This document shows positions 12,735-40,722 of a DNA stretch of 64,000 nucleotides, in pieces. Numbering within the stretch: position 1 is the first letter of the stretch; each line of letters begins with the position of its first letter. The position numbers and the translations under genes were made by a program. The stretch is from an uncultured Candidatus Saccharibacteria bacterium (GTDB taxonomy: Bacteria > Patescibacteriota > UBA1384 > JAGVHQ01), in contig CAYIGD010000002.1 in the NCBI GenBank assembly GCA_964362865.1, positions 4,253 to 68,252 of the forward strand. The letters run 5' to 3'. The notes under the pieces were generated by a model. That model was not told the origin of the DNA. It searched no databases and saw only the letters and a list, made by a program, of their open reading frames with translations.

Positions 12735-13089
12735 TTTCCACTCGAATGAACTGAAGATTTTTTAAGTATCGCGCCCTTAAACGGTTATTTGGCAGCATCC
12801 GGCGAACAGCATCTTTCAATACGTTTTCCGGCTCTTTCTGAAGCCGTTCCCCCAGTGTTTTGGATGTCAGCGCGCCCGGGTAGCCCGAATGGCGGTAATA
12901 GCGTTTTGTACTTAGCTTCCCACCGGTCACTTGGATTGAGCGGACTCCTGCGACCAATACTTTGACCGCAGGGACACGATTGGCAAGGAAGTCCGGGCGG
13001 TCTTTTCCGCGCAGCTTTACGGCGATTTCCGTTGCGACGCGCCCTAAAATTTTACCCGCGACGTTGATCGTAACCGTATTTTCGTTCAC
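12724..13089 (-). CDS. rplM: 50S ribosomal protein L13
   Basis: GRVATEIAVKLRGKDRPDF...RMLPNNRL matches L13. Confidence 0.93.
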   Translation of the reverse strand: MNENTVTINVAGKILGRVATEIAVKLRGKDRPDFLANRVPAVKVLVAGVRSIQVTGGKLSTKRYYRHSGYPGALTSKTLGERLQKEPENVLKDAVRRMLPNNRLRARYLKNLQFIRVENGD

Positions 13090-13490
13090 TGCTTACTCCG
13101 CGGAGTTATTTTTGGTTTAGGTTCTTTTTTTGCGGGTGCCTTTTGAGAGGCGACCGGCTCTTTCGCAATCAGCTCCACTCGGGCGAGCGGAGCATTATCT
13201 CCGCTGCGCGTACCAATTGAAGTAATCCGAAGCGCTCCCGACGAATCTTCCAATCGCGCGCCCAGGTTTTCTTGCATTTTCTTTGCGGCGGGGCCTGTTA
13301 GAGAGGCGCGCAACTGCCGGTATCCGGAAAGTGTTTTGGTACGTGCAATTGAGTGTACGCGCGCGAATACTCGTCGAACTTCTTTTGAGCGTGCGTGCGT
13401 GGTGGTTATACCTTCATACAGAATTAGTGAAGAAACAAGATTCTTCAGGAGGTGTTTTCGGGGGCCGCGTTGGCGGGAAAGTTTACGCAT
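13086..13490 (-). CDS. rplQ: 50S ribosomal protein L17
   Basis: RKLSRQRGPRKHLLKNLVSSL...TTTHARSKEVRR...SGDNAPLARVEL matches L17. Carries a lysine-rich C-terminal tail. Confidence 0.9.
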   Translation of the reverse strand: MRKLSRQRGPRKHLLKNLVSSLILYEGITTTHARSKEVRRVFARVHSIARTKTLSGYRQLRASLTGPAAKKMQENLGARLEDSSGALRITSIGTRSGDNAPLARVELIAKEPVASQKAPAKKEPKPKITPRSKQ

Positions 13491-14289
13491 CAGACGCTAC
13501 TTTTCCTTTTTTCTTATCGGAGGCAGGTGCTTTTTCTTTTTTCGGCGATAATTTTCGTTCAGATCGTTTGGGCGCGGCCGGTTCGGTAACCTGAGACTGA
13601 ATATGTTCGAGGTGATCACCAAGGATTGTAATCGCTGCCTTGACGGCGTTAATCGGAGGAATCGTTTGGTCAGTTTCAAGCGTAAGCGTTAAACGATCAA
13701 AGTTTGTCATTCCCTCTACGCGCGTGTTTTCAACCTCATAATGGACTTTACGGATCGGCGTAAAAATGCTGTCAATCGCGATCACCCCAATCGGTAGCTT
13801 TTCATCCACGCGCTTCTCCGTCGGAACATAGCCACGGCCATGCTCGACTGTCACTTCCAAGTTAATCGCCCCGCCTTTTTCAAGGTTGCAGATGACAAAA
13901 TCGCGGTCAACAAACTCTGAACGTGCGTTGGGAGTAAAATCAGATACCTTAACCGGACCGGGTGTTTTTTTGGAAAGGGTGAGAGTGACACCTTCTTCTC
14001 CTTCGAGTTTCAAGCGCACGCCTTTAAGATTCAGAATAATATTGACGATATCTTCTCGAACACCTTTAATGGTTGAGAATTCGTGGGTCGCATCTTCAAA
14101 TCGGACGGTTGTGATAGCGGCCCCACCGAGAGACGAGAGTAAAACTCGGCGCAGCGCGTTACCGATCGTGACTCCAAAACCGGGTAAAAGCGGCTCAATT
14201 ACAATTTCGGCTGCTCCCCGGGAAGCGTGCTGCGTGGTTACCTTAACAATTTCAGTCTCTGGGAGTTGATACATCTGTTCCTTTCTCAC
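13483..14289 (-). CDS. rpoA: DNA-directed RNA polymerase alpha subunit (N-terminal dimerisation domain only, Lys-rich tail)
   Basis: The alpha NTD is clear (IEPLLPGFGVTIGNALRRVLLSSL, GVREDIVNIILNLKGV, VPTEKR). After about residue 232 comes a 36 aa tail (PKRSERKLSPKKEKAPASDKKKGKVASDA) with no recognisable alpha-CTD HhH. rplQ starts immediately afterwards. Confidence 0.9.
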   Translation of the reverse strand: MRKEQMYQLPETEIVKVTTQHASRGAAEIVIEPLLPGFGVTIGNALRRVLLSSLGGAAITTVRFEDATHEFSTIKGVREDIVNIILNLKGVRLKLEGEEGVTLTLSKKTPGPVKVSDFTPNARSEFVDRDFVICNLEKGGAINLEVTVEHGRGYVPTEKRVDEKLPIGVIAIDSIFTPIRKVHYEVENTRVEGMTNFDRLTLTLETDQTIPPINAVKAAITILGDHLEHIQSQVTEPAAPKRSERKLSPKKEKAPASDKKKGKVASDA

Positions 14290-14861
14290 CGAGAATAATA
14301 CTCGACGATAAGTTGTTCATTAATTTCTGTTGGCATCTGCTCACGCTCGGGCAGAGCACTCACGGTTACTTCTTTTTTGGTGGCGTTGGCTTTGAGCCAT
14401 TTTTCAACCTGGCCCTCGGACTCTCGCATTCCCTTTTTCAGCGTCAGAGTGTCACTGATCTTTAAGTGCGCGGAAGGAATATTCATCCGTTTTCCATTTA
14501 AGAGTACAAGGCCATGCGTAATCAGCTGGCGCGCATGAGCGCGAGAGCGCGTAAACCCTGATCGGTACAAGACATTATCGGCGCGTTGTTCCAGGATTTT
14601 TAGCAGTGCCTCTCCGGTATTAGTGGTAGAGCGGGCTGCAATTTTAAACATTCGACGCAATTGGGCCTCTTTGAGTCCGTACAGCGCCTTAATTTTTTGT
14701 TTTTCTTTCAGCTGAAGGGAAAAGTTACTCTCTTTCATACGAACGCGGCTTGTTCCGTGTTGGCCTGGCCGGTATGGACGGCGTTGAAATGCCTTTACCG
14801 ATCCGGTGAGGTACGTCCCAAGGCGTCGTGAAATTTTTGTCTTCGCGCGGCGCAAATCCAT
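14286..14861 (-). CDS. rpsD: 30S ribosomal protein S4
   Basis: Canonical S4 N-terminus and S4 domain (LESRLDNVLYRSGF-like: LEQRADNVLYRSGF). Confidence 0.95.
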   Translation of the reverse strand: MDLRRAKTKISRRLGTYLTGSVKAFQRRPYRPGQHGTSRVRMKESNFSLQLKEKQKIKALYGLKEAQLRRMFKIAARSTTNTGEALLKILEQRADNVLYRSGFTRSRAHARQLITHGLVLLNGKRMNIPSAHLKISDTLTLKKGMRESEGQVEKWLKANATKKEVTVSALPEREQMPTEINEQLIVEYYSR

Positions 14862-15244
14862 CAGACTCTCCTCGGTTTCTTCGCCCGTACGCCGTTGTGC
14901 GGGATGGGCGTCACGTCTTGGATTGAATGCACGATAATACCGACGCCTTGGAGCGCGCGGATTGAAGCATCGCGGCCTGATCCGGCACCGGAAACAAAAA
15001 TATCCACTGCTGCAATTGTGTATGGGCGTGCGCGCTCTAAAGCATTTCGCATTGTGACCTGTGCGGCATAGGGCGTGGCCTTGCGGCCACCTTTAAATCC
15101 AGAAGAGCCGGCACTGGCCCAGGAGACGACGTTTCCGAGCTGATCGGCAATGGAAATAATGACATTATTAAACGTGGACTGAATTGTGATTCGGCCGCGT
15201 TGAATTGGAGCAATGATCTTTTTCTTTTTGCGTTGGAGCGCCAT
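14861..15244 (-). CDS. rpsK: 30S ribosomal protein S11
   Basis: IQSTFNNVIISIADQLGNVVSWASAGSSGFKGGRKATPYAAQ matches S11. Confidence 0.95.
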   Translation of the reverse strand: MALQRKKKKIIAPIQRGRITIQSTFNNVIISIADQLGNVVSWASAGSSGFKGGRKATPYAAQVTMRNALERARPYTIAAVDIFVSGAGSGRDASIRALQGVGIIVHSIQDVTPIPHNGVRAKKPRRV

Positions 15245-15245
15245 T

Positions 15246-15629
15246 TTATGTCTTTTCTGATGCTTTCTTACGGCCTGATCCGACCGTCACCCGTTTGCCG
15301 CGTTTCGTACGGGCATTTGTTTTTGTGCGCTGCCCGCGCACGGGAAGGTTGCGCGCATGCCGCAGTCCGCGATAAGCGTGGATTTCTTTGAGACGTTTAA
15401 TGTTTTGTCCGATCGTCACTTTGAGGTCTCCTTCAACCTTGTAGGCGGAAATTCGTGTTCGAATGCGCTCCACCTCTTCACTAGTGAGGTCTTTGAGCCG
15501 CACGTCTTCTTTCACGCGCGCATCTCGTAATATCTTGCGTGAAAGGGATGGTCCAATCCCGTAGATGGCGGTAATGCCCACCACGACCCTTTTTCCCATC
15601 GGTAAAAGTGTGCCCGCAATTCGAATCAT
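15246..15629 (-). CDS. rpsM: 30S ribosomal protein S13
   Basis: [26 protein letters not shown] and the basic C-terminal tail. Confidence 0.95.
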   Translation of the reverse strand: MIRIAGTLLPMGKRVVVGITAIYGIGPSLSRKILRDARVKEDVRLKDLTSEEVERIRTRISAYKVEGDLKVTIGQNIKRLKEIHAYRGLRHARNLPVRGQRTKTNARTKRGKRVTVGSGRKKASEKT

Positions 15630-15742
15630 TATCCCTGTCTTTGTTTATGTTTCGGGCTCGTGCAGATTACCCGAACAACACCCGCTCTGCGGATTATTTT
15701 ACAGTTACGGCACATTTTCTTAACCGATGGCCTTACCTTCAT
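15629..15742 (-). CDS. rpmJ: 50S ribosomal protein L36
   Basis: Not in the ORF track. Reverse-complement translation gives [37 protein letters not shown] (37 aa, C-x2-C...C-x4-H zinc ribbon). Its TAA stop shares 1 nt with the rpsM ATG, and the infA stop overlaps its start. Confidence 0.85.
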
Positions 15743-15975
15743 TGTACTGTTCCATTCTGGAGATTGAGACGGCGGCTGATGCGACCTTTCGACAAGTCGT
15801 ACGGAGTCAGTTCGACCGTGACGGTGTCGCCGGGAAGAATTTTGATGCGGTGGAGGCGCATTTTGCCGGAAATATGGCCTAAGATTTCATGCCCATTATC
15901 TAACACTACCTTAAATAAGGCGTTTGGCAGTGCCTCAAGCACTCTGCCTTGAGCTTCGATAACATCTTTATTCAT
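15739..15975 (-). CDS. infA: Translation initiation factor IF-1
   Basis: [31 protein letters not shown]...[21 protein letters not shown] matches the IF-1 S1-like fold. Confidence 0.93.
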
Positions 15976-16786
15976 GCGTGGGCTCTACCTCAACTCTTCC
16001 AATTCGCCCGAGAATTCGAGCGTACGCCTCTAGTGTAGCGTTTTGAGGGCGTTTCGTCAAGATCTCAGCCCCTTTTTTGGTAACTAGTATCGTATGTTCG
16101 AAATGAGCGGCGTTTTTTCCGTCGGCCGTTCGCACTGTCCAAGCGTCCGGGTCAGTCACAACGTGCCAGTCACCCAGAGTGACCATCGGTTCGATCGCTA
16201 ATGCCATTCCCGCTGCCAGGATAGGGCCTGTTCCAATTTCTCCAAGATTCAGGATCCGCGGATCCATCTGAAGTGCGGGTCCGATCCCGTGTCCGCACAG
16301 GTCCCGCACAATCCCGAGCCGAGCTTGCGTGATTACATCTGCAATCGCGGCCTGTACGTCGCCGAGGTGAACCCCATCCCGTACCTTCGCGATTCCCGCC
16401 ATCAGAGCAGATTCGGTCACTTGGAGGAGTCGGGCGTCTTCCAAGCGAGGTTTTCCAATAATTATGGTAAGGGCGGAGTCAACAAATACACCTTTGTTCT
16501 TCAAGCCGATGTCAATTCCCAAAACATCGCCAGTGCGGATACGTTCGTTATTCGGGATGCCATGCACCAGGGCGTCATTGCGTGAAAGACAGGTTGCATA
16601 ACGGTATCCTTGATGATTAAGGAATGCGGCCTTGACCCGCGCTTGTTTTATGCGCGCGTAGGCGAACGTGTCCAAAGCGATAAGAGTTACGCCGGGTTTT
16701 GCGGCCTGTGCGGTGAGAGCAAGGATATATCCTAAAAGCGGACCAAGTTCGCGCATGGCATTTATTTGTTTTTGGGAAAGAATCAT
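15968..16786 (-). CDS. map: Methionine aminopeptidase type I
   Basis: Metal-binding residues of the pita-bread fold (D...D...H...E...E pattern) with [14 protein letters not shown] and FEHTILVT. Confidence 0.92.
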
Positions 16787-17445
16787 CGTGCCTCTTTTTT
16801 TAAAAAAGTGTTGATTTCAGTAAGCAAAGCGCGCGTGACATCTTTAATCGGCGGGGTGCCGTCTACGCTTACTAAGCGGCCTTGTACGCGATAATGGTCA
16901 ATTACCGGAAGGGTTTGACGCCGAAAAATATCAAGCCGTTTTCGAATTGACTGTTCGGTATCGTCATGGCGAACCACAAGCGTCCCCCCGCATTTTTTGC
17001 ACTGTTCGGCAAATTCTTCGGACGAAGAAGGGGCTTTGATTGTGGCAACCAACTTGCAATTCGTGCAAATACGACGGTTTTTTATGCGTTCAAGGGAAAT
17101 TTTTTCGGGTAGCGTAATATAGACCGCGAACGGCTCCGCTCCTTTATATTTCTTCAACAGGAAGTTGAAATCGTTATACTGGCGCATATCACGCGGAAAT
17201 CCGTCAAAGACTATTCCATTAGCCTGATGGGTTTTAAAGTAATCCTCCATCAACTGGAAAATGAATCCATCCGGAATAAGCTTTCCTTGCGAAAGTATCC
17301 GTTCGATTTCTGGGTCGTGATGAGTGCGGGCAAATTCCCGCAGAACGTCTCCCGTGGAAAAAACTCGATATCCAAAATGCTTGGCGAGCTCCTTAGTTTG
17401 CGTTCCCTTCCCGCTTCCTTGCGGGCCGAATAAAGCAATGTTCAT
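16783..17445 (-). CDS. adk: Adenylate kinase
   Basis: P-loop GPQGSGKGTQ and a Zn-binding LID (CTNCK...CKKCGG). Confidence 0.93.
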   Translation of the reverse strand: MNIALFGPQGSGKGTQTKELAKHFGYRVFSTGDVLREFARTHHDPEIERILSQGKLIPDGFIFQLMEDYFKTHQANGIVFDGFPRDMRQYNDFNFLLKKYKGAEPFAVYITLPEKISLERIKNRRICTNCKLVATIKAPSSSEEFAEQCKKCGGTLVVRHDDTEQSIRKRLDIFRRQTLPVIDHYRVQGRLVSVDGTPPIKDVTRALLTEINTFLKKEAR

Positions 17446-18425
17446 TGAATGTTGAGGATGTTAGTTGCCGGCCCGAGGGTTGTGTTGTTGAGGAAAAGGG
17501 TGGTGGGTGTGTCAATTTTTGCGCGACTAATATTAAGTAGGCCAGTTGGGGTTTCGTGGGCATCGGAGAAGATCCGGTCAAACTCGCCATAGTCTTTCAA
17601 AAGCTGTCCGGTTAGGGAAAATGTCTGAACGCTTGTTTTCAGATCGGTTACTTTGAAGGATACAAGCACTCGTTCGCCCGTTACCCGTAGCGCGCGTACC
17701 GGCTGTGTAAAAGTTTTTAAAACAATCGGATCAGCAGGCGTTGTGGGAACTCGCTTCAGCAGGTATTGGGAGTTGCTGGGCGCGATATAATAGACCGCAC
17801 TTGCGTCCCCCGACCACTGGGGGAAGAGAATGCCTTCCTGTTCTTGGGCAAGTATGGAGGGTCCACTGTTGCCGAGTGAGTTTTTCATAAGATCAAATGA
17901 CGCGCCCTGCGCGTTCTGATTAAATTGAACGGTAAGATATGCGCTTCGGTCGGAAGATACACTCGGTGGTTGCACAGAAGAAACCGATTCGGCAAGCACC
18001 GTTGCCTGCGCGCTCCCTGCTTTTGGAAAGAGCACTAAGTCGACAACAGCTCCCATAAGATCCGTATTTTCTCGAGCGCGAGTTGCAATGATGGAATCGG
18101 AGCTGGAATAGACCACTTCCAAATACCCGCTCCCAGGTCCACGGGTAATGATTTGGGAGTTTTTCTGTGTTAGATTATAGGCGATCACTTCGCCGGTCGG
18201 AGCCGAGAATGCGTAAATAATCTGCTCGACGGGCGTTTTCTCTGGCTCAGGACTACTGCTCGGTGAACTCTGGTTCTCTGGTGTTGGACTCGCGTTCGAT
18301 ATAATCACGCTTGAGCTTGTTTCGCTCGTCGGCTTTGTCGTATCGGCGCGTACGACCAAATACCCGAAGCTGGCCAAGGCAAGCATGAAAATCACGGTTG
18401 AGAATGTTTTTCGTGCGCGTTTCAT
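17442..18425 (-). CDS. Hypothetical secreted protein inserted between secY and adk
   Basis: 327 aa with a signal peptide or anchor (VIFMLALASFGYLVVRA) and a Ser/Thr/Pro-rich linker, then a beta-rich domain with no motif I recognise. Its stop overlaps the adk start by 4 nt, and its start abuts the secY stop. Confidence 0.55.
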   Translation of the reverse strand: MKRARKTFSTVIFMLALASFGYLVVRADTTKPTSETSSSVIISNASPTPENQSSPSSSPEPEKTPVEQIIYAFSAPTGEVIAYNLTQKNSQIITRGPGSGYLEVVYSSSDSIIATRARENTDLMGAVVDLVLFPKAGSAQATVLAESVSSVQPPSVSSDRSAYLTVQFNQNAQGASFDLMKNSLGNSGPSILAQEQEGILFPQWSGDASAVYYIAPSNSQYLLKRVPTTPADPIVLKTFTQPVRALRVTGERVLVSFKVTDLKTSVQTFSLTGQLLKDYGEFDRIFSDAHETPTGLLNISRAKIDTPTTLFLNNTTLGPATNILNIQ

Positions 18426-18426
18426 C

Positions 18427-19698
18427 TTACGAAAACGTATCGTACGTGCGCATCACGACTTGGGCCTTGAGTTGGCGGGTGGTTTCGATAATAACGGAAA
18501 CCAAAATAAGAATACTAGTCCCACCCAGCACCAGAGTCTGGACCTTCGTGAGTGACTGTACAATAAACGGCAGAACCGCAACCAGCGCGATAAATAACCC
18601 CCCCAAAGTGGTAATGCGGATTAAGCTCGTGCGCAGATACGTGGCAGTCTCGTTCCCGGGCCGGATGCCGGGGATGAACCCCCCCTGTTTTTGGAGATTT
18701 TCCGCCACCTGAGGGGGCTGGAAGACAACGAATGTATAGAAAAAAGTAAACGCAAAAACAAACACGAAATACAGGATTCCATATACGGTTTGATTTTCAA
18801 GCAATCGCGTGAGCGTGTTCGCGGCATTCGCAATCCATTCGGTTTTAGCTAGAGCAAAGAAGCGCGCGACTACGGTTGGGAAGATCAACATTGAAAGCGC
18901 AAAAATAATCGGGATTACGCCGGCGGAATTCACCTTGAGCGGAATATGGGTATTCACGCCCGCCCAACTGCGTTGCCCTCTTACTCGGCGGGCATACGTT
19001 ACCGGAATTTGGCGTTCGCCCTGCGTAATAAATACAATCGCGGCGACCGTTGCGATCCCGATTGCGGCAAACGCAACCAGGCCAAAAATTTTACCGGTAT
19101 CCACAACCGCCAATGTATTGCGTACTTGAGTTGGGAGGCCGGACACGATCCCGAGCGCGATTAACATCGAGATTCCATTGCCAATACCGTTTTCAGAAAT
19201 AATTTCTCCAAGCCACATTAAAAGCATGGTCGTGGCGGTCGTGACCGCGAGCATGGTTGCGATCTGGATTCCATCCCATTCTGGCAGGATCCCTTGCTGT
19301 CGGAATAAAAGCAATGTTCCGATCCCTTGTAAGATCGCCATCGGAACGGTTAGGAGCCGCGTGTATTGGGTGATTTTTTTGCGGCCAAACTCCCCTTCTT
19401 TCTGGAGCGCCTCGAGCGATGGGACCACGTAGGTCATCAGCTGCACGACAATCGATGCGGTAATATAGGGGCCGACTCCCATCAACATGATTGAGAAATT
19501 ACTGAGTGTCCCGCCCGAGAAGAGATCCAGTAATCCAAAAAGCTGGTTTTGGGAGAAAAATTGTGAAAGTTGGCGGATGTCCACGCCCGGCAAAGGAACG
19601 TGCGCAATAAAGCGGGTTAAAATAAGAATCCCGACCGTTATCAGGGCTTTGCGCCGCAGGTCAGGTAAGCGCCAGATTTTGACAAGGAAATTGAACAT
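18427..19698 (-). CDS. secY: Preprotein translocase subunit SecY
   Basis: 423 aa, 10-TM SecY pattern with an N-terminus of the form L...DLRRK-L-T-L-L--R and a C-terminus ending RTYDTF. Confidence 0.93.
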   Translation of the reverse strand: MFNFLVKIWRLPDLRRKALITVGILILTRFIAHVPLPGVDIRQLSQFFSQNQLFGLLDLFSGGTLSNFSIMLMGVGPYITASIVVQLMTYVVPSLEALQKEGEFGRKKITQYTRLLTVPMAILQGIGTLLLFRQQGILPEWDGIQIATMLAVTTATTMLLMWLGEIISENGIGNGISMLIALGIVSGLPTQVRNTLAVVDTGKIFGLVAFAAIGIATVAAIVFITQGERQIPVTYARRVRGQRSWAGVNTHIPLKVNSAGVIPIIFALSMLIFPTVVARFFALAKTEWIANAANTLTRLLENQTVYGILYFVFVFAFTFFYTFVVFQPPQVAENLQKQGGFIPGIRPGNETATYLRTSLIRITTLGGLFIALVAVLPFIVQSLTKVQTLVLGGTSILILVSVIIETTRQLKAQVVMRTYDTFS

Positions 19699-19708
19699 AT
19701 ATCAAGAA

Positions 19709-20335
19709 TCAATTATACCCGAACAGAGTTTCGTTTACACTGGATGCGCTCTTTCTGCCAAACTCGGGAGCACGTTCGTAGCGGGGGTGTTGCGATCTAT
19801 ACGCAGTATTGAGTGCGATAATTTCAGATAGCTCTTTACGCTGCAGCTTATTTTTTGAAAACGGCGTACTCGGGTATCCCACCGCTAATAAAACAATCAC
19901 GCGCCCGCTATGGGGTATTCCGATCAGCTCGGCGATTGGTTTTTGTTTAAATCCGGCAATTTGATTAACGATTAAACCGCGCTCAAGCGCTGCGAGTGTG
20001 AACGCCATAACAGCCGCGCCTACATCGTATAAATAAAATAAGGTGTTGCCGATACGGTCGTCAAAAGCCGGATCTGACCAGACGGCAATCATAAGCGGTG
20101 CCTCTGCCCCCCATTCGTTTCCCGGATGAAGATTTTCATGAATTTTCGTGCGCACCGGTTTATCTCGGAGTATTACAAATCGCCACGGTTGTGTGTTGTG
20201 GGATGAGGGTGCCCATTGTGCGGCTTCAAAAAGTGCTTTCATGACAGATTTCAGCGGAATTCTTGTCAAAAAAAATCGTGAGCGAACCCTTTGCTTCAAA
20301 ATTGTGGGCAGCCCCAGGCGCGCTCGCACTCGCAT
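19709..20335 (-). CDS. Nitroreductase-family protein (NAD(P)H-flavin oxidoreductase-like) inserted between rplO and secY
   Basis: RVRSRFF...PLKSVMKALFEAAQWAPSSHNTQPWRFVIL is the nitroreductase N-terminal signature (RRS-R-F ... A-SS-N-QPW-F). The ATG at 20333-20335 sits 4 nt after the rplO stop. Confidence 0.7.
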   Translation of the reverse strand: MRVRARLGLPTILKQRVRSRFFLTRIPLKSVMKALFEAAQWAPSSHNTQPWRFVILRDKPVRTKIHENLHPGNEWGAEAPLMIAVWSDPAFDDRIGNTLFYLYDVGAAVMAFTLAALERGLIVNQIAGFKQKPIAELIGIPHSGRVIVLLAVGYPSTPFSKNKLQRKELSEIIALNTAYRSQHPRYERAPEFGRKSASSVNETLFGYN

Positions 20336-20339
20336 ACGT

Positions 20340-20750
20340 TTAGACCCGCTGCGCGTGCTTTTTAGTAAGTTTGATATGCTCTCCCAGTGTGAATCCGGTG
20401 GGAAGCGGTCCGCCAATCAGCTTCACTGCACTTACGCTTGTTTTAAGCAGGCCGGCTTGGCGTAATTTTTCGAGCGTAACTTGAGTAGGCTTTAATTTTT
20501 GGGTGAGCGCTTGGATCGTCACCGCAATCGGTTTTGTGCCTTGGCGCATCTGCCGCGAGAGTGAGCCGCGTTTTTTAGGGATTCTACGGATCAGGGGGGT
20601 TTGCCCGCCTTCAAACCGCGCAGATACCCTATATCGGGCTCTTTGACCTTTGGTACCTCGTCCGGCAGTTTTACCTTGCCCGGCTGCAATCCCCCGCCCG
20701 ACCCGGACCCTATTTTTTATTTGTCTTTTTGGAAGCTCGGTTAGATTCAT
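20340..20750 (-). CDS. rplO: 50S ribosomal protein L15
   Basis: [24 protein letters not shown] matches L15. Confidence 0.9.
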
Positions 20751-21276
20751 GTTTCTCTTCTTTCTGCTTTTGATTTTTAGCTTTCACGGTAACGCGTTGC
20801 GTTGGATTTTGATATGCGATGCGGGATTTTTCAGGTCGAAACGAAAGCAGCGCCTGTTGGGTGGCCCGAATCGTATTCAATTTATTTGAAGATCCCATAC
20901 TCTTCGTAATAATGTTTTTAATCCCGGCCACTTCCGCAATCGCCCGCACCGGGCCTCCCGCGATCACCGATGTTCCTGCTCTGGCGGGTTTTAACATGAC
21001 GGTCACGCCAGAAAAGAAACCAGTTGTCGGATGTGGGATTGTACCAGCGTGAAGCGGGATTGAAAACAGACTTCGCTTTGCTTGGGTAAAGGCTTTTTTT
21101 ACGGCAGCTTGCACTTCCGCCGCCTTTGCCACGCCGATCCCGACTGAACCTTGATGGTTACCAATCACAACGACGGCACGGAAACGGATCCGTCGACCGC
21201 CTTTTACGGTGCGAGCGACACGATTGATTTCGATCACTCGCTCTTCAAACTCTGGTTTTTCGGGTGAATCTTGCAT
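20710..21276 (-). CDS. rpsE: 30S ribosomal protein S5 (with Lys-rich C-terminal tail)
   Basis: [42 protein letters not shown] matches S5. Start chosen at MQDSPEK just after the rplR stop. The tail is [24 protein letters not shown]. The 3' end overlaps rplO by about 41 nt. No rpmD (L30) lies between. Confidence 0.9.
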
Positions 21277-21283
21277 TTTACTC

Positions 21284-21607
21284 CTATATCGTAAGGCCCG
21301 TGCTACGCGCCCCGTCGCAAATTCGTTGTACGTTGCCATGGTATGCGCGTGCTCCGCGGTCGAATACAACGCGTGTAATTTTTTTGGCAAGTGCTGCTTT
21401 ACCAATCGTCTCCCCAAGCTTAGTTGCCGCTTGGGCGGCTTCGCCTTTGGCGGGACGCACCAGTTGCGCGGCTAAGACCCGACCACCGTGATCGATTACT
21501 TGTGTATAGAAACTCCGGTTTGAAATTGTGACTACAAGGCGCGGGTAGAGCGCGGATTTAGCCCGCGCACGAACTTTTTGTTTTCGTCGAATACTTGAAA
21601 AACTCAT
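21284..21607 (-). CDS. rplR: 50S ribosomal protein L18
   Basis: RKQKVRARAKSALYPRLVVTISNRSFYTQVID...RVVFDRGARAYHGNVQRICDGAR matches L18. Confidence 0.9.
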   Translation of the reverse strand: MSFSSIRRKQKVRARAKSALYPRLVVTISNRSFYTQVIDHGGRVLAAQLVRPAKGEAAQAATKLGETIGKAALAKKITRVVFDRGARAYHGNVQRICDGARSTGLTI

Positions 21608-22161
21608 TACGCTCCTTTAGTCGCGGCACCTTTGCCTGCTTTTCCGGGTTTCAGGATAACACGTTCGTTGGAATAGCGGAGCCCTTTGCCTTTGTACGGC
21701 TCCACGGGACGCAAGCGCCGAATGCTTGCCGCTACCTCGCCCACTTTCTGCTTATCAATGCCAGAAATTACAATCGTATTCTTTTCCATTTTAAGCGTGA
21801 CCCCTTCGGGTGGGGAGTAATGTACAGGATGAGAAAAGCCGAGGTTCAGTGACAGGGTAACGCCCTCGAGTGTTGCCCGCATTCCAACCCCTTTGATTTC
21901 AATCCGGCGAACATACCCGTCTTTAACCCCGATGGCCGCGTTGGAAATAAGTCGTTGCCAGAGGCCATGCTGCGCTTTTGCGGTCCGCGTGTCGTCTTTG
22001 CGATTCACAACGATTTCTGACTCCGTTATGCTCGGCACGATTGTGCTCGTTGGGGAAAGCGTAATCGTTCCCAAAGGACCGCTCAGAGATAGCTCGTTAC
22101 CCAGAAGCTGGGCGTGTACGCCCTCAGGGAGTTTGATTGGAATTTTTCCGAGTCGTGACAT
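21607..22161 (-). CDS. rplF: 50S ribosomal protein L6
   Basis: MSRLGKIPIKLPEGV and two L6 alpha/beta repeats. Confidence 0.93.
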   Translation of the reverse strand: MSRLGKIPIKLPEGVHAQLLGNELSLSGPLGTITLSPTSTIVPSITESEIVVNRKDDTRTAKAQHGLWQRLISNAAIGVKDGYVRRIEIKGVGMRATLEGVTLSLNLGFSHPVHYSPPEGVTLKMEKNTIVISGIDKQKVGEVAASIRRLRPVEPYKGKGLRYSNERVILKPGKAGKGAATKGA

Positions 22162-22171
22162 TTAACCTTCT

Positions 22172-22579
22172 TTAAGAGACTTCACACAACAGTTCGCCGC
22201 CCAGTCCTTTGGAGCGCGCTGTTTCTCCAGCCATCACTCCTTTCGGAGTGGAAATGACGATTAACCCATATCCACCGAGCGGAATCGGGATCTGAGTTGC
22301 TTTCGCGTAGCGACGTAAACCCGGTCGACTAAGGCGTTTTATTGCTCTCAAAACCGGTTTTCTTGTTCCGCCGAGCAACCCCACTTTGAGTAATCCGGGT
22401 TTATCTTTGGGTTTTAATTCTTCGATTTCAAATACATACCCTGCGTCTTTCAAGATTTTCAGAATCGCGGCACTGAGTTTGCTTTTAGGTACGCTCACAA
22501 ACTCTGCCCGCCGGGCAGTGCCGTTTCTAAGCGTGGTTAACATTGCACCAATTGGATCGCTTGTCATAATTCCTACCAA
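22172..22579 (-). CDS. rpsH: 30S ribosomal protein S8
   Basis: [14 protein letters not shown]...[14 protein letters not shown] matches S8. Confidence 0.93.
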
Positions 22580-22758
22580 CTCGCTTTCGTTACTCCCGGA
22601 ATTTCACCCCGAGAGGCGTGCTCTCGAAAACAGATTCGGCACATGCCGAACATGCGCATATATCCGCGCCCTCTTCCACAAATATTGCAGCGCCGGATGG
22701 TGCGACTTGTGTACTTCGGTTTTCTTTTTGCTTTTTCAATCAGAGATTTTTTTGCCAT
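22573..22758 (-). CDS. rpsZ: 30S ribosomal protein S14 type Z (zinc-binding)
   Basis: 61 aa with two CxxC pairs ([23 protein letters not shown]). Confidence 0.92.
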
Positions 22759-22766
22759 AATTTTCC

Positions 22767-23303
22767 TTACTCATGTGTACGAAACGGGATCCCCAGGGCC
22801 TTGATGACGGCCTCACCCTCATGGCGTGTTTTAGCACTCGTTGCGATTGCGATCGACAAGCCGTGAGTTTCTTGTACTTGCTCGGCGGCAATTTCCGGTA
22901 ATGTCGTTTGTTCTGTAAATGCGATCGTAATTGCTCCGGTATCGGAAATGCTTGATTGCTTGAACCCGCGAAAATCACGGATTCGCGGAAGGCCGATTGC
23001 CACAAGTTTTTTCAGAAAATCCCACATTCGTGTGCCCCGTAACGTCACCATGTAGCCCACTTCATCTCCGGCACGGACTTTGAAGCCCGCGATCGCTTTA
23101 CGGGCCCGCGTGCTTATTGGTTTCTGGCCAGTGATCAGTGTCAGAGTTTTTTGGACCTCATCCGTAAATCGTTTGTTTGCACGCATTTTGCCGATCCCGA
23201 CAGATACGACTACTTTTTTAATGCGCGTTCCTGCGTGCGGGTTGCGATTCACAATCAGCTCCCCCAACTTGCGTGTAAATTCTTTTTGCGCGAGATTAGT
23301 CAT
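22767..23303 (-). CDS. rplE: 50S ribosomal protein L5
   Basis: [11 protein letters not shown]...[13 protein letters not shown] matches L5. Start placed at the internal MTNLAQKEF. Confidence 0.92.
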
Positions 23304-23607
23304 ACAGGGCTTCTTTGCATTTAGCGCAAATCCGCGTCCGTCCACCTGCATGAATTTTCACGTGCGCACGCGTTGGGCGGGAGCAGCGTGGGCAGACAAG
23401 CATAAGATTTGAAACGTGTAGCGAGGCTGCTTTATCAATTATTCCACCTTGTGGATGCGATCGGCCGGGCTTCAAGTGGATTTTTGCAATATTAAGGCCA
23501 CCCACAATCGCCCGTGACGTTTGGCGGTTGATTTGTTCCACTTTTCCGACCTTTGTGCGGTCTTTTCCGGTTCGAATTGTAACTGTGTCACCAACTTTAA
23601 AATGCAT
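23296..23607 (-). CDS. rplX: 50S ribosomal protein L24 with C-terminal zinc-ribbon extension
   Basis: KOW motif HFKVGDTVTIRTGKDRTKVGKV, then a C-terminal CPRCSRPTRAHVKIHAGGRTRICAKC (CxxC...CxxC). Confidence 0.85.
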   Translation of the reverse strand: MHFKVGDTVTIRTGKDRTKVGKVEQINRQTSRAIVGGLNIAKIHLKPGRSHPQGGIIDKAASLHVSNLMLVCPRCSRPTRAHVKIHAGGRTRICAKCKEALYD

Positions 23608-23612
23608 ATGTC

Positions 23613-23981
23613 CTACCATACCTCTGGCGCTAGAGAGAGAATCTTTGTATATCCGCGCTCGCGCAACTCGCGCGCGACCGGTCCGAAAACACGGGTCCCA
23701 CGGGGCGTTCCATCGGGCTGAATCATCACCACCGCGTTATCGTCAAAGCGAATCGTTGACCCATCCCGCCGCTTAAACGGTTTTTTCTGGCGGACTACAA
23801 CCGCATGCGCTACTTCTTTGGATTTTACTCCAGCATTTGGTAACGCGGATTTGACCGTCACGACAACCCGATCGCCGAGCTGGGCCGCAGAGCGGGGGGC
23901 GCCGCGTGAAACATGAATGCAGACAACCCTCTTAGCCCCGGAGTTATCCGCAACAACAAGATGGGATTGAGGCTGGATCAT
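23613..23981 (-). CDS. rplN: 50S ribosomal protein L14
   Basis: [17 protein letters not shown] matches L14. Confidence 0.95.
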
Positions 23982-24220
23982 GAGCGCTCCTTAGCCTTCG
24001 TGACAACTTTCCATGCTACCAGACGAGATCGACGCGCAGTAGCTTCGATTGTCACATTTTCTCCGATCCCAAATGTTCCCTTTTCTACGTGTGCGAGGTA
24101 GCGGCGGGAAACGATTCGACGTTTTCGGTATAAAGGATGAATAATTGATCGCTCAACAGCGATTTTTACCGTTGAGTCCCCGATCAAGCCCACGATTACT
24201 CCTTTTTTACGCTGTAACAT
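23978..24220 (-). CDS. rpsQ: 30S ribosomal protein S17
   Basis: [29 protein letters not shown] matches the S17 OB fold. Confidence 0.9.
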
Positions 24221-24416
24221 TAGATTTCTCCCTTAAAATCGTCCAGGTACGAGCCAATTTCTTGCGCAGCGCGCGTACTTTTTTTGTATTCTTTTGCTTA
24301 CCGAGGCCGATTTCGTGGATTGTTTTTATAATTTCAGATCTTGTGGTCACAATCACTTCCCCCAATGCTTGCAAAGGGATTTCTCGGATTTTTTTTAGCT
24401 CGTCACGGGTTTTCAT
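24207..24416 (-). CDS. rpmC: 50S ribosomal protein L29
   Basis: 69 aa, helical, of the form EL...E...L.E....LR. Confidence 0.85.
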
Positions 24417-24826
24417 CGATTATCTTTCACGAGGAACGTTGTTTTTACCATGAGCTTATGGGCTGCAAGTCGCATCGCCTCTTTGGCTACTGGCTCAGAT
24501 ACACCGTCCATCTCAAACAGTATCCGTCCTGGCCGTACTCGTGCGACAAAGTGGTCGAGCCCGCCCTTTCCGCCACCCATGCCAGTTTCTGCGGGTTGGC
24601 TCGTAACCGGCGTGTGAGGGAAAATTCGAATCCAAATCTCGCCTCCGCGTTTGACATAACGAGTCATTGCTCGGCGGGCCGCCTCGATTTGACGCGCGCT
24701 CAGGCGCCCTCTTTCAATCGCTTTTAAGCCATATTTGCCGAACGCTAGGTCTACTCCGCGTGAAGCGTTTCCGGGTAAAACACCGCGGAAAACCTTCCGA
24801 TGTTTTAATTTACGCGGCATGAGCAT
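24413..24826 (-). CDS. rplP: 50S ribosomal protein L16
   Basis: [15 protein letters not shown] matches the L16 N-terminus. Start placed at the internal Met, overlapping the rpsC 3' end. Confidence 0.92.
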
Positions 24827-25481
24827 GGATACTCTCCTCGCTATATTGGCCGCGATGAATCCAGACCTTAACTCCAATGACGCCATAGGTCGTACGGGCG
24901 TGCTCGACAGCAAAATCAATATCGGCCCTAAAGCTCGATAGCGGTAAAGTGCCGATCGTTACAGTTTGGGTACGGGCGATTTCGACCCCGCCCAGTCTTC
25001 CTGAAAGTTGGATTCGAACACCTTTTGCGCCGGCGCTCATGACTTTTTCACTTGCTAAGCGCATCGCACGTTTATACGCGATTCTCTTTTTAAGCTGATT
25101 GGAAATATTTTGGGCGACTAAGCTTGCGTGTAGGTCCGGTTTTTTGATTTCAAGAATATTAATTTTACATTTCACTAACGCGCCCGCAGTGCGTGTTAGG
25201 TGTGCTTCAATTTTAGTTCTCAGTGCGATAATTTCCTGCCCACTGCGGCCAATGAGCAAACCTGGTTTGGAGGTTGAAAGCGTGAGGGTAATGTCGGCTG
25301 GTCCACGTTCAATCTCCACGAGCGCAATCCCGGCGTTAGTGGAAAAGTGGGCACGGATGAAGCGTCGAATCTCCAGATCCTGTAGGAGGTTGCGCGTATA
25401 ATTGCGACCACTGAACCAGCGGCTGCGCCAGGCGCGCGTTAAAAGTGTACGCATTGCAATCGGATTTACTTTTTGGCCCAT
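24810..25481 (-). CDS. rpsC: 30S ribosomal protein S3
   Basis: [11 protein letters not shown] and the KH domain. Confidence 0.93.
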
Positions 25482-25831
25482 CGCGTTCCTTTTGGTTTTG
25501 GCTCACTCTCGTCGCTGAGCTCAATGTGGATGTGACTCATTTTTTTCATCATCGGTGCACTGCGCCCGCGTGAGTGGAGAATGCGCCGCTTGAGGGCTGG
25601 TCCCTCATCTACTCGGGCAATCACGCGTGCTTTTTCAATATCCATTTCCCGATCTTTTGCAAGCGCTGTGGCAGCCTTAAGCGTCTTGAGCAGTATAAGC
25701 GCCGCGTGATTGGGAATAAAGGTCAGGCGATCCAAAGCCTCCTGAGCGCGCACGCCCCGGATCGTTGTCGCGATTAAACGAACTTTGCGCGGCGCAATCC
25801 GTTGAAATCGAGAAACAGTGTGCACTTTCAT
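25466..25831 (-). CDS. rplV: 50S ribosomal protein L22
   Basis: [16 protein letters not shown]...[21 protein letters not shown] matches L22. Confidence 0.9.
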
Positions 25832-26109
25832 GAATTCACCTGTCGCTTTTCTTGCTCGCGGGCCATTTTCCCTCCATGTCGGCGAAACGTGCGCGTGCTT
25901 GCAAATTCTCCAAGTCGATGGCCAACCATGTCTTCCGTGATCTTGACAGGAATGAAGATTTTACCGTTGTGGACCGCGAACTGCACCCCGATCATTTCCG
26001 GTGTAATAACACTTGCCCTCGCCCAGGTTTTAATCGGTCCATTTCCAGCGGTTATTTTTTTCAATAATCGCTGGTCTATGTATGGCCCTTTTTTTAGTGA
26101 ACGTGACAT
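25828..26109 (-). CDS. rpsS: 30S ribosomal protein S19
   Basis: [12 protein letters not shown]...[17 protein letters not shown] matches S19. Confidence 0.95.
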
Positions 26110-26111
26110 AT

Positions 26112-26936
26112 CTATTTCCTTTTTCGCACGATTAACTGTGCCAGGGGGTTGCGCCGACGAGTTTTAAAGCCAAGCGCCGGTTTGCCCCACGGGGTTTTGG
26201 GGTGTTTCAATCCGATTGGGCTATTACCTTCACCTCCACCGTGAGGATGAGCGGCTGGGTACATTGCTTTTCCGCGCACAGTCGGACGCTTCCCCATCCA
26301 GCGCCCCCTCCCGGCTTTGCCGATTCTGATCGTCGAATGGGATAGATTACCGATTTTTCCGATCGATGCATGCGAACGAAGCTGGATTTTGCGGATTTCT
26401 CCAGATGGAAAACGCACTTGCGCATAGTCGCCTTCTTTGGAAACGATTACCGCGGCTGCCCCGGCAGATTGCGCAACCCGGACTCCTCCTTGGGGAAAGA
26501 GTTCCACACTATGAATTTCAATTCCGCTTGGAATCGCGTTTAGGCTCATTCGATTTCCAACTGAGATTTCTGCTTTTTCGTTCGATTCAATGATGTGCCC
26601 CACTTGTAAACCATCCGGCGCGAGGATATAAATCATCTTCCCGCTTTCGGCTTTTACCAACGCAATCCGCGCGCTACGATTCGGGTCATATTCGATTGTC
26701 GTAACTGTTCCGGTGTGCCGACCGAGTTGTTCAAGGGTGGAGATAATTCGAAATCGACGTCGTACCCCACCACCTCGGTGGCGGATCGAAATTGTACCCG
26801 ATTGATCGCGGCCAGAATGCACTCTGAGCGCCCTTGTCAGACTTTTGAGCGGTGTGCGCTTCGTGAGCTCCTTAAAATCAGGGTACGTGATGGCTCGAGA
26901 ACCGGCAGCATTTGGTTTAACTGTGCGTAAAGCCAT
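26112..26936 (-). CDS. rplB: 50S ribosomal protein L2
   Basis: 274 aa with the conserved His-containing C-terminus (PHGGGEG...). Confidence 0.95.
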
Positions 26937-27304
26937 TACTTCTCCGTATCCTTGCCTTTATCTGGACGGTCATTTGTGGTGCTGTTTTTTAATTTCTTTT
27001 TTTCGTTTTTTTCGCGCGATTCATGTCCCGCGGGGGATGAAAATTCAAATCCGGGAATTGTCATTCCCTTTTTTAAGTGGATGTAGGCAAACTTAACCGC
27101 GGAAACCGCCCCCTTGATTCGCTTGAAACGTCGGGCTTTTGGTTTTCTCGTGGAGGTCGTAATTTTAGTAACCACTACATCAAAAAGTTTACTAATCGTC
27201 CGTACAATTTCAGGTTTGCTCCTCGAAAGAGGAACCGCGAACGTGTAGATTGCAGTTCCTGCGCGGTGTAATGATTTTTCCGTTAAGTGCGGTCTCAGTT
27301 TCAT
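26936..27304 (-). CDS. rplW: 50S ribosomal protein L23 (with Lys/Glu-rich C-terminal extension)
   Basis: L23 core (PHLTEKS...YTFAV...K-EI...LF-V-V--IT) plus the tail REKNEKKKLKNSTTNDRPDKGKDTEK. Confidence 0.88.
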   Translation of the reverse strand: MKLRPHLTEKSLHRAGTAIYTFAVPLSRSKPEIVRTISKLFDVVVTKITTSTRKPKARRFKRIKGAVSAVKFAYIHLKKGMTIPGFEFSSPAGHESREKNEKKKLKNSTTNDRPDKGKDTEK

Positions 27305-40200: not shown

Positions 40201-40549
40201 AGGTCCCGCGGTTCGTCATAACCGGGAAATCACCAAGAAAGATGGCAGATTCTTTTTGCTTCCCGGTTACTTTATTATAAAGAATCGCTTTGCACTTTAA
40301 GGGCGCTTTATAGGTGAGGTTTTTTTCCCGGGCAGTCGTTTCGTCTACGCGGGGCGCTTCAAGGGCATAATCGCCGAATTCAAGACGTAAGTTTTTTCCC
40401 GTAAAATCATCAACTGGAGAGATTTCGTTAATAATCTCTCGAATACCCTCGTCAAAGAGCCATCGGTATGAATCAAGCTGCAGTTGAATAAGGTTGGGAA
40501 AGGAAATGTTCGTTTTCCCTTCTTTCCCTTGAGAGAAGTATTTGCGCAT
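37214..40549 (-). CDS. rpoB: DNA-directed RNA polymerase beta subunit
   Basis: 1111 aa, collinear with bacterial RpoB (rifampicin cluster region [33 protein letters not shown]). Confidence 0.98.
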
Positions 40550-40672
40550 ATTTTTCTCCTCATGTTAAAATATTCCACACAAGATGGAACTTCAGTTAAG
40601 TACTGCTTTTTAATTCGCTGCGATTTGTATAGCTGACACCTTTGCCTTTGTACTGTCTATAGGATCATTTTT

Positions 40673-40701
40673 ACTCTATCGAACAGTTTTTGATTTGTCA
40701 A
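40673..40701 (-). promoter_or_regulatory. Candidate sigma70-type promoter upstream of rpoB
   Basis: On the minus strand: TTGACA (plus 40696-40701), a 17 nt spacer, then TAGAGT (plus 40673-40678). This lies about 120 nt upstream of the rpoB ATG. Consensus match only. Confidence 0.25.
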
Positions 40702-40722
40702 GTCCTACACCAAATAAGGAAA

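Follow-up and report, generated by a model that had tools for sequence, protein, structure and literature searches.

Comparative work on the ribosomes of Patescibacteria (CPR) has shown that about half of their ribosomal proteins have missing or added regions, that uS19 carries an Ala/Lys-rich C-terminal region of ~25 aa, that uL22 and uL23 are enlarged, and that surface segments are missing from the rRNAs; compensation by the added regions has been raised for CPR and left unclear (Tsurumaki, Saito, Tomita & Kanai, RNA 2022; PMC9297842). The absence of uL30 from CPR has likewise been published. RNA polymerase alpha subunits that lack the alpha-CTD are known from Hodgkinia, Tremblaya and Euglena chloroplast rpoA, all cases of small genomes with few transcription factors, and the alpha N-terminal domain is enough for assembly and basal transcription (PMC8321222). 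Loss of the alpha-CTD in Parcubacteria is mentioned in the same source as a passing remark, and the paper cited for it does not deal with the polymerase in its main text. CRP/FNR-type activators are notably missing from CPR (PMC12531629). Polycationic disordered tails of histones and ribosomal proteins bind nucleic acid non-specifically, as summarized in a review (PMC11764897).

In the window analyzed here, that is, the whole 64-kb stretch of DNA, the S10-spc-alpha operon from a genome of Patescibacteria (CPR) occupies 12.3-29.1 kb on the minus strand (Table 1). The C-termini that a sequence-only reading had quoted for L17, RpoA, S5, L22, L23 and L24 were found as written in all six cases, on minus-strand ORFs with real stop codons. 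Its claim that lysine-rich C-terminal tails recur is borne out by the number of lysines in the last 25 residues, which is highest in S5 (9), RpoA (8), L23 (8) and L17 (7) among the 72 ORFs of the window. Given a lysine background of 6.2% across these ORFs (n=72), the binomial expectation is 0.045 ORFs with at least 7 K in the last 25 residues vs. 4 observed, and none of the metabolic and membrane proteins encoded by the 72 reaches 5 K. Within the window, lysine-rich tails are confined to ribosomal proteins and RNA polymerase alpha; GyrA, GyrB, RpoB and RpoC are also DNA-binding, yet no such tail was found when the C-termini of the window ORFs were checked.

Table 1. Positions in the window of the tailed proteins, their tails and associated features
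Feature	Residues	Window position	Strand	Details
rplQ (bL17)		13086..13490	-	134 aa; ORF, Pfam L17 domain 14-108
bL17 lysine-rich tail	109-134	13089-13166	-	AKEPVASQKAPAKKEPKPKITPRSKQ; 7 K + 1 R, net +6
rpoA, N-terminal domain only		13483..14289	-	263 aa from ATG 14274; 268 aa from GTG 14289
RpoA tail	226-263	13486-13599	-	QSQVTEPAAPKRSERKLSPKKEKAPASDKKKGKVASDA
rplO (uL15)		20340..20750	-	136 aa; ORF
rpsE (uS5)		20710..21276	-	188 aa; Pfam S5 N and C domains, ending ~147-156
uS5 tail	157-188	20713-20808	-	beyond Pfam domain end
rplX (uL24)		23296..23607	-	103 aa from ATG 23607
uL24 four-cysteine motif CPRC...CAKC	72-97	23317-23394	-	inside Pfam PF17136
rplV (uL22)		25466..25831	-	121 aa; Pfam L22 domain 7-105
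uL22 short tail	106-121	25469-25516	-	16 aa, 4 K, 1 R; weak case
rplW (uL23)		26936..27304	-	122 aa; Pfam L23 domain 3-83
uL23 tail	89-122	26939-27040	-	SSPAGHESREKNEKKKLKNSTTNDRPDKGKDTEK; mixed charge

The tails are of low complexity (K/E/P/A/S-rich) and 16-38 codons long. They lie C-terminal to the conserved globular domains recognized by Pfam, and PDB alignments of L17, L22, L23 and S5 stop at the same points. Chain ends confirm that the tails of L17, L22, L23, S5 and RpoA are absent from the E. coli orthologues, as the sequence-only reading had stated. For example, the E. coli L17, L22 and L23 chains stop 1-7 residues past the aligned core, and S5 continues after its anchor for 19 residues in E. 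coli vs. 41 here, an extension that passes the Firmicutes end in the alignment. Both tails modelled with AF2, those of RpoA and S5, are predicted to be disordered (coil, pLDDT <55), with values of 35-47 over residues 155-188 of S5. The description of the tails as basic holds for L17, RpoA and S5 but fails for L23, whose tail is a mixture of K, E and D with a net charge of +2 here and 0 in a relative. Among CPR, the C-tail of L23 measures 26-52 aa in the non-Saccharibacteria loci and in one of the five Saccharibacteria loci, while the other four have 9-18 aa; at most 10 aa follow the anchor in ~61 non-CPR loci, and no C-tail is seen in the solved uL23 structures among the PDB matches. A tail on L22 is present as claimed, but it is marginal and exceeds that of Bacillus (6 aa) by only ~10 aa, the range in other CPR being 19-80. 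Both the near-neutral charge of L23 and the shortness of the L22 tail were counted against interpreting these tails as polycationic tethers.

Protein lengths hardly differ between the window and relatives at 85-90% identity (L17 134/134, S5 188/187, L22 121/121, L23 122/122), and tail net charges are the same for L17 (+6/+6) and S5 (+9/+9). Over tails of equal length, identity to the close relative falls from core to tail in L17 (0.89/0.46, over a tail of 26 aa in the relative as well), RpoA (0.92/0.61), S5 (0.91/0.56) and L23 (0.83/0.32); the short L22 tail is 81% identical vs. 83% for its core. As judged from these alignments, the tails of relatives drift in sequence but retain their length and their net positive charge.

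A survey of 90 operons places these tails in a broader context. The 11 operons richest in lysine-rich ribosomal protein tails (3-7 each) all belong to CPR and include the window, which has 4, whereas non-CPR loci have 0-2 per operon and never more. Carriers of tails on L23, L22, S5, L15 and L17 are spread across deeply divergent CPR lineages. Outside CPR, lysine-rich tails of L17, L22 and S5 were found in Myxococcota, Proteobacteria, Verrucomicrobia, Ignavibacteriota and Actinomycetota, and extended bL17 and uL22 are present in solved ribosomes of Mycobacterium, Cutibacterium, Flavobacterium and Mycoplasma; the actinobacterial S5 tails in the genome sample are acidic rather than basic. The suggestion that the tails are lineage-specific is consequently valid for operons with multiple tails, which are linked to CPR, but not for single tails of L17, L22 and S5. 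Several lysine-rich tails per operon, on the evidence of the sampled sequences, are typical of CPR, a trait only partly described before.

The tails are genuine lysine-rich C-terminal extensions, predicted to be disordered, and we consider it probable, at roughly 0.6, that they serve as polycationic tethers on nucleic-acid-binding proteins of Patescibacteria. In the established architecture of the ribosome, the C-termini of uL23, uL22 and bL17 lie around the peptide exit on the solvent face, and that of uS5 is on the solvent-facing side of the 30S body. Acting independently of sequence, the tails of these four proteins would rest on the rRNA surface next to their C-termini or sweep across it, and the added binding energy could aid assembly or stability of a ribosome with fewer proteins (there is no uL30 here). 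The Shine-Dalgarno sequence and start of the next gene, which fall in the last codons, in addition constrain the tail ends to purine-rich DNA coding for K, E and G.

Another origin, which we regard as unlikely, is a neutral one, in which compaction of the operon produced the tails as by-products that are tolerated on solvent-exposed C-termini and devoid of function. Stop codons would have drifted downstream into purine-rich inter-cistronic DNA such as Shine-Dalgarno regions and A-rich spacers, and A-rich low-complexity stretches would have expanded by slippage, giving peptides rich in K and E. Each tail does reach the next gene, its 3' end overlapping or abutting the start codon, and in every tail the last few codons encode the Shine-Dalgarno sequence of that gene. 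For instance, the rplQ stop shares 4 nt with the start of L13 and GGAG lies inside the tail, the rplV tail shares 16 nt with the start of S3, and the last 41 nt of rpsE overlap rplO, so that the S5 tail end covers the first 13 rplO codons; the overlap is likewise 41 nt in a relative (L081). The rapid divergence of tails relative to cores, the near-neutral L23 tail and a tail lysine codon usage (28 AAA : 9 AAG) equal to that of the rest of the operon also agree with this origin. Likewise, tail lengths range from 11 to 80 aa among CPR lineages and the L15 tail present in most other CPR loci is not found in the window, as would be expected if any given tail is constrained weakly or not at all. 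However, the Shine-Dalgarno sequences and overlaps explain just the last 3-8 codons of tails that comprise 16-38, and drift alone does not account for tail length being exactly conserved, and net charge conserved, at 85-90% overall identity, for the same five proteins being tailed across divergent CPR, or for the restriction of tails to nucleic-acid-binding proteins. Moreover, Parcubacteria-like S5 tails have a common end motif, KKAAKKS[IM]KK, without any gene overlap. That the tails could be errors of annotation or assembly (wrong stops, frameshifts, chimeric contigs, with RpoA a truncated pseudogene) is hardly credible. The ORF list does place the start of S5 too far upstream, and possibly those of L24 and RpoA as well: the mechanical S5 ORF of 235 aa should begin at ATG 21276, in agreement with the public gene call of 188 aa (P0121). 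Start calls do not affect C-termini, however, and the S5 tail is unchanged. Wrong stop calls, which the sequence-only reading had named among the findings that would overturn it, are ruled out by tails that meet the next start codons and keep their lengths in relatives. The same gene ends recur in independent ENA, JGI, Logan and NCBI assemblies, and the RpoA homologues described below come from many samples; on these grounds the artefact reading was effectively refuted.

The sequence-only reading had suggested that the tails possibly compensate for lost proteins or rRNA segments; in a specific version, each tail would replace the contacts or space of a particular lost rRNA helix or ribosomal protein (for example uL30, bL9 or gaps in the 23S), in the manner of mitochondrial ribosomes. 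No L30 gene lies between S5 and L15 in the window, the tails are typical of CPR, and CPR combine rRNAs without surface segments with proteins that have added regions (PMC9297842), all of which suit such compensation. On the other hand, the added regions are not necessarily near the missing ones (PMC9297842), similar tails of L17, L22 and S5 occur in phyla with full-size ribosomes, and the tail of the same kind on RpoA cannot compensate for a ribosomal loss. We think this reading improbable. No rRNA genes lie within the window, and neither the PDB matches nor the literature search turned up a CPR ribosome structure.

L24 represents a different situation. The CxxC...CxxC pattern reported for it is present, but it is neither an added C-terminal module nor specific to the lineage. 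PF17136 covers residues 42-104 of the 107-aa L24 ORF with the motif within it, and the motif was found in 28 of 84 sampled L24 orthologues from many phyla. A residue-by-residue alignment places the CPAC...CAKC of Thermus thermophilus L24 at the same positions of the domain, the shared pattern being CPxC...C(A/K)KC, with no relevant difference between the two. By its sequence, uL24 here is the widespread four-cysteine, zinc-ribbon-like form.

The most interesting part of these results is the RpoA tail, which stands in place of the end domain that contacts DNA and activators. The sequence-only reading had included it in a remodelling of the ribosome surface, which does not apply, as RpoA is non-ribosomal and its tail is the sign of a different event, in which the entire alpha-CTD was lost. 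Pfam recognizes only the N-terminal dimerization/insert domain (PF01193, E 4.5e-22; PF01000, E 3.2e-30), ending at ~227-232 of 268, and the protein matches T. thermophilus alpha at 2e-56. PDB alignments end at about residue 230-252, while full-length solved alphas have 305-368 aa and E. coli alpha, with its alpha-CTD, has 329; the protein here ends 38 aa beyond its N-terminal domain. In the AF2 model, pLDDT is ~90 over residues 10-228 and 46-55 over the tail (229-263, coil). RpoA has no Pfam match to the alpha-CTD (PF03118, helix-hairpin-helix), and an alpha-CTD HMM, checked on 62 positive controls, found nothing in six frames of the 64-kb window and close relatives (best E 0.85). There is no room for this domain because L17 starts 8 nt ahead of the RpoA stop, and no separately encoded alpha-CTD was found in the window or in three related loci, searched over 8-21 kb. 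The best 120 RpoA homologues, which include Berkelbacteria AKM82743.1 and QQG50113.1, are 248-301 aa long and have PF01000 and PF01193 only, without PF03118. Alphas of this type form ~20-25 clusters at 50% identity and group in an NJ tree as a single pure clade with 36 tips, and the alpha-CTD is present in the Parcubacteria-like loci fetched. This distribution indicates, at the level of sequence, that alpha-CTD loss is common to a clade and not the condition of a single truncated gene.

The tails of these alphas (n=121) have a median length of 40 aa and 28% K vs. 7.4% in the core; 107/121 have at least four K/R in the last 10 residues, and 34/121 have no net positive charge. In alphas that do have an alpha-CTD, the C-terminal part following the same anchor carries a net negative charge. 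With that domain gone, the polymerase would therefore be unable to make canonical contacts to UP elements or class-I activators. The tail is located where the interdomain linker would be and could plausibly supply non-specific contact with upstream DNA instead. We tentatively suggest, as a possibility on the doubtful side, that in a diverse clade of CPR, to which this lineage belongs together with Berkelbacteria and relatives, the folded alpha-CTD was swapped, perhaps repeatedly, for a histone-tail-like polylysine that acts as a sequence-independent upstream DNA anchor. If so, this would be a promoter-upstream contact of a type undescribed for bacterial RNA polymerase, and it would parallel the ribosomal polylysine tails of the same organisms, with cheap polycations taking the place of structured nucleic-acid-binding modules in minimal cells.

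Among known systems, the CPR ribosomal proteins compiled previously are the closest, as they concern the same group of organisms and the same phenomenon (PMC9297842). That work differs in that uS5 and bL17 are outside its enlarged list, the added region of uL23 is N-terminal rather than a C-tail, no single recurrent lysine-rich class is recognized, and RpoA is not considered. Solved ribosomes of M. smegmatis, M. tuberculosis, C. acnes, F. johnsoniae and M. pneumoniae have C-terminal additions past the same conserved domains, with extended bL17 chains of 163-199 aa vs. 118-127 in E. coli and Thermus and extended uL22 chains of 153-197 aa vs. 110; these come from other phyla than the present CPR, and the likeness is one of position and length. 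Histone and ribosomal protein tails, the lysine-rich C-tails of uS13 and uS19 and the basic, ribosome-binding C-tails of YidC are also K-rich, disordered and terminal, but they share no homology with the present tails; the likeness is in a possible mode of action, and binding here is what we infer. The alphas of Hodgkinia, Tremblaya and the Euglena chloroplast have likewise kept the N-terminal assembly domain and lost the alpha-CTD, whereas here, in place of endosymbionts and organelles, the loss extends over a diverse CPR clade and goes together with a lysine-rich tail that is conserved.

All of the C-termini on which the sequence-only reading had based its claim of lysine-rich tails (L17 residues 109-134, RpoA 226-263, S5 157-188, L22 106-121 and L23 89-122) were found as written in the open reading frames (ORFs), and each tail begins past both the end of the Pfam domain and the last residue aligning with solved orthologues. 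Among the 72 ORFs of the window, S5 (9), RpoA (8), L23 (8) and L17 (7) have the most lysines in their last 25 residues; given a background lysine content of 6.2% in window ORFs, 0.045 ORFs with at least seven would be expected by chance. No metabolic or membrane protein reaches five, and lysine-rich tails in the window are confined to nucleic-acid-binding proteins. Two of the tails need qualifying: that of L22, at 16 aa, is short and exceeds its Bacillus counterpart by about 10 aa, and that of L23 combines both charges (net +2 in the window, 0 in a relative). Wrong stop calls or frameshifts can be ruled out and an artefactual origin of the tails is refuted, since independent assemblies of relatives at 85-90% identity give the same ends and protein lengths and every tail overlaps or touches the start codon of the next gene (L23-L2 by 1 nt, L22-S3 by 16 nt, S5-L15 by 41 nt, RpoA-L17 by 8 nt and L17-L13 by 4 nt). 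The S5 ORF had been given a start that lies too far upstream; the protein actually has 188 aa, with no change to its tail.

The tailed proteins are encoded in a complete S10-spc-alpha ribosomal operon, with the gene order S10, L3, L4, L23, L2, S19, L22, S3, L16, L29, S17, L14, L24, L5, S14, S8, L6, L18, S5, L15, nitroreductase, SecY, a 327-aa protein, Adk, Map, IF1, L36, S13, S11, S4, RpoA, L17, L13, S9. S5 and L15 overlap, and no L30 gene separates them. The closest named homologues belong to Patescibacteria and Berkelbacteria, which places the host in the candidate phyla radiation (CPR). No RNA genes were found in the window with Rfam.

Coordinates of features in the window
Feature	Position	Strand	Remarks
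S10-spc-alpha ribosomal operon	12.3-29.1 kb	minus	complete
L17 stop to L23 start	13086-27304	minus	span covered by the sequence-only reading
L36 gene, 37 aa	15629-15742	minus	overlaps IF1 stop and S13 start
Gene for 327-aa unknown protein	17442-18425	minus	no Pfam match; between secY and adk
Nitroreductase gene (PF00881)	19709-20416	minus	between rplO and secY
L15 gene, 136 aa	20340-20750	minus	no Pfam match at E<=0.01
Obg directly upstream of rpoB	37214-41679	minus	L10 and L7/L12 genes absent between
662-aa ORF	38-2026	plus	no Pfam match; at window edge

Several further features of this region were observed. L36, seemingly missing between IF1 and S13, is present and falls under the ORF-list cut-off. 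The lysine-rich tail of 13-30 aa carried by most other sampled CPR L15 proteins is absent from L15 of the window. The nitroreductase at the L15-SecY junction is kept in three close relatives (loci L081-L083), and the cargo at this junction differs in other CPR operons (L084, L086-L089), including about 6 kb with nine genes, an NYN gene, a 1434-aa NHL-repeat protein, small ORFs and, in another case, about 6.6 kb including heliorhodopsin; the site resembles a hot spot for insertions. In the 327-aa protein, a hydrophobic anchor at the N-terminus precedes a linker rich in Ser and Pro; the protein has the same length and position in three related loci. The C-terminus of RpoB is strongly acidic (net -8 over the last 25 residues), opposite in charge to the RpoA tail.

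Comparison of the window with a close relative reveals the nature of the tails. Identity is 83-92% in the cores and 32-61% in the tails (except the short L22 tail, 81%), tail lengths are equal, and the net charges of the L17 (+6) and S5 (+9) tails are the same. In the AlphaFold2 models the fold extends as far as residue ~156 in S5 and residue 228 in RpoA, the remainder being coil with pLDDT of 35-55. The tails are real, lysine-rich, lineage-typical and conserved in length and charge, and they behave like disordered regions in which composition rather than sequence is under constraint. Each tail's final codons include the next gene's Shine-Dalgarno sequence (GGAG or AAGGA) and often run into its start. 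This arrangement explains why the very end is conserved (e.g., KKTNKK in S5, which overlies the start of L15) and accounts for a few K/E/G codons, but not for tails of 16-38 codons.

To place the tails in a wider context, they were compared with 80 operons from across bacteria (among the matches listed), used as background, with a best identity of 57% and no close relative among those matches, four close-relative loci obtained via exact-protein look-ups, and six further CPR operons. Orthologues were identified by profile searches, with a tail defined as the residues after a fixed anchor at the Pfam domain end; the L23 protein search gave only four matches because L23 is too divergent for the word index. 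The L23 tail (39 aa after the anchor in the window) spans 26-52 aa in non-Saccharibacteria CPR and 9-52 aa in Saccharibacteria versus at most 10 aa in about 61 non-CPR loci, and no C-tail was found on solved uL23 structures. The L17 tail (26 aa; 11-77 aa in other CPR, 0 aa in Firmicutes) has counterparts in Myxococcaceae (96 aa with 30 lysines), a proteobacterial MAG (79 aa with 20 lysines), Ignavibacteriota and Bacteroidetes, and among solved structures bL17 is long too, with chains of 180 and 199 aa in Mycobacterium, 187 aa in Cutibacterium and 163 aa in Flavobacterium. For L22 (16 aa; 19-80 aa in other CPR, ~6 aa in Bacillus), lysine-rich tails also occur in one Actinomycetota MAG, Verrucomicrobiae and Ignavibacteriota, and the solved uL22 chains of Mycobacterium and Mycoplasma pneumoniae are long. 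The S5 tail measures 41 aa in the window, 52-69 aa in most other CPR loci (21-37 in four) and 19 aa in Bacillus, and ends in KKAAKKS[IM]KK in many other CPR loci. In several Actinomycetota, Solirubrobacterales among them (loci L035, L050, L055, L072 and L075), the S5 tails are long (58-92 aa) and strongly acidic (net -6 to -20), opposite in charge to CPR tails on the same protein.

Ribosomal proteins were counted as tailed if they carried a tail of 10 or more extra residues with a lysine content of 20% or above; by this count the top 11 loci were all CPR, with 3-7 tailed proteins per operon (4 in the window) versus 0-2 outside CPR. A single tail is therefore not unusual, and it is the recurrence of lysine-rich tails within one genome that is a CPR signature in this sample and sets CPR apart from the other phyla sampled. 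The proposal of a lineage-specific remodelling of the ribosome surface is thus correct in part: tails recurring within one genome are lineage-typical, but those of L17, L22 and S5 taken singly are not special. Similarly, the C-terminal CxxC...CxxC zinc ribbon singled out in L24 is present but ordinary: the motif (CPRC...CAKC) is part of the Pfam L24 domain, each of its cysteines aligns with one in Thermus thermophilus L24 (CPAC...CAKC), the solved orthologue with the best score, and it occurs in 28/84 sampled orthologues, from Clostridia, Veillonellaceae, Actinomycetota, Myxococcota, Bacteroidetes, Chloroflexia, Ignavibacteriota and CPR, which excludes it as a novelty. A search for literature on zinc in Thermus L24 returned nothing relevant. 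S14 (61 aa), L24 and L36 of the window all appear to be cysteine-rich, zinc-type forms.

In general ribosome architecture, uL23, uL22 and bL17 have their C-termini on the solvent face that surrounds the peptide exit, and uS5 has its C-terminus on the solvent-exposed side of the 30S body. We propose that the tails serve as polycationic tethers without sequence specificity, which on the ribosome would add electrostatic binding to rRNA, either during assembly or in the mature particle. The tails might instead be neutral by-products of operon compaction, as their fast divergence, variable length and overlap with Shine-Dalgarno sequences would suggest; we regard this as unlikely, since tail length and charge are conserved, the same proteins are tailed across CPR and the S5 end motif is shared. 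Specific compensation, with every tail making up for one particular rRNA helix or protein that was lost, as the sequence-only reading had suggested, is more doubtful still, given similar tails in phyla whose ribosomes are complete. Tsurumaki et al. 2022 (PMC9297842) reported regions missing from or added to roughly half of the ribosomal proteins of CPR; the same study described an Ala/Lys-rich C-terminal region on uS19, listed uL22 and uL23 as enlarged, considered it unclear whether additions compensate for losses, and called for a structure. No CPR ribosome structure was found. The ribosomal part of our results is of a known and partly published kind; uS5 and bL17 are not among the enlarged proteins in that list, and RpoA was not considered there. 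The value of the ribosomal part is mostly descriptive, extending the known set of ribosomal protein additions specific to CPR by the uS5, bL17 and uL23 C-tails; these additions and their recurrence are targets for the first CPR ribosome structures.

The RpoA tail is a different case. Its lysine-rich C-terminus is real but was not added to a normal protein: according to Pfam, RpoA consists of the N-terminal dimerisation and insert domains followed by 38 residues, and the alpha-CTD (PF03118) is absent. Full-length solved alphas have 305-368 aa, and their alignment to RpoA of the window ends at the interdomain linker. As L17 starts 8 nt before the RpoA stop, there is no space for an alpha-CTD, and a profile built from 62 alpha-CTDs found no match in any frame of the window and three related loci (best E 0.85), ruling out for the window a copy in another frame or nearby gene. 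The best 120 RpoA homologues, among them Berkelbacteria proteins from complete genomes (AKM82743.1 and QQG50113.1), are all 248-301 aa long and all lack the domain. In these alpha-CTD-less proteins, the median tail is 40 aa long with a lysine content of 28% versus 7.4% in the core, and 107/121 carry four or more K/R among their final ten residues; alphas keeping the alpha-CTD have a net negative charge in the C-terminal region past this anchor. CPR as a whole have not lost the domain, which is present in five Saccharibacteria and four Parcubacteria-like loci. With the library clustered at 50% identity, genuine alpha-CTD-less, lysine-rich-ended proteins make up about 20-25 of the 150 best clusters. 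In a neighbour-joining tree (no bootstrap), 36/46 sampled alpha-CTD-less sequences form one pure clade with the window; ten others (library proteins P0258, P0266, P0272, P0282, P0309, P0315, P0319, P0326, P0346 and P0394), all lysine-rich-ended, fall outside it, scattered among alpha-CTD-containing CPR-like sequences. This topology hints at repeated loss of the alpha-CTD.

In model bacteria, the alpha-CTD is the module for UP elements and class-I activators. The only published report of its loss in CPR that we found is one passing sentence on Parcubacteria (PMC8321222 and its preprint), and the main text of the paper cited there for this loss does not mention the polymerase. The alpha N-terminal domain alone is enough for core assembly and basal transcription (summarised in PMC8321222), and thus the enzyme without alpha-CTD is expected to retain activity while being unable to respond to UP elements or class-I activators; this fits a report that CPR have no CRP/FNR-type regulators (PMC12531629). 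In B. subtilis, loss of the alpha-CTD lowers transcription of ribosome-synthesis genes (PMC4495994). The RpoA tail may supply a non-specific upstream DNA contact; if it does substitute for the alpha-CTD, promoter architecture and regulation must depart from the textbook picture. A sizeable bacterial clade seems to live without this domain, and the alpha-CTD-less, lysine-tailed RpoA of this diverse CPR clade is the piece of interest to transcription specialists. Extreme endosymbionts and some plastids are already known to have lost the alpha-CTD, and the CPR case is a variant of that loss.
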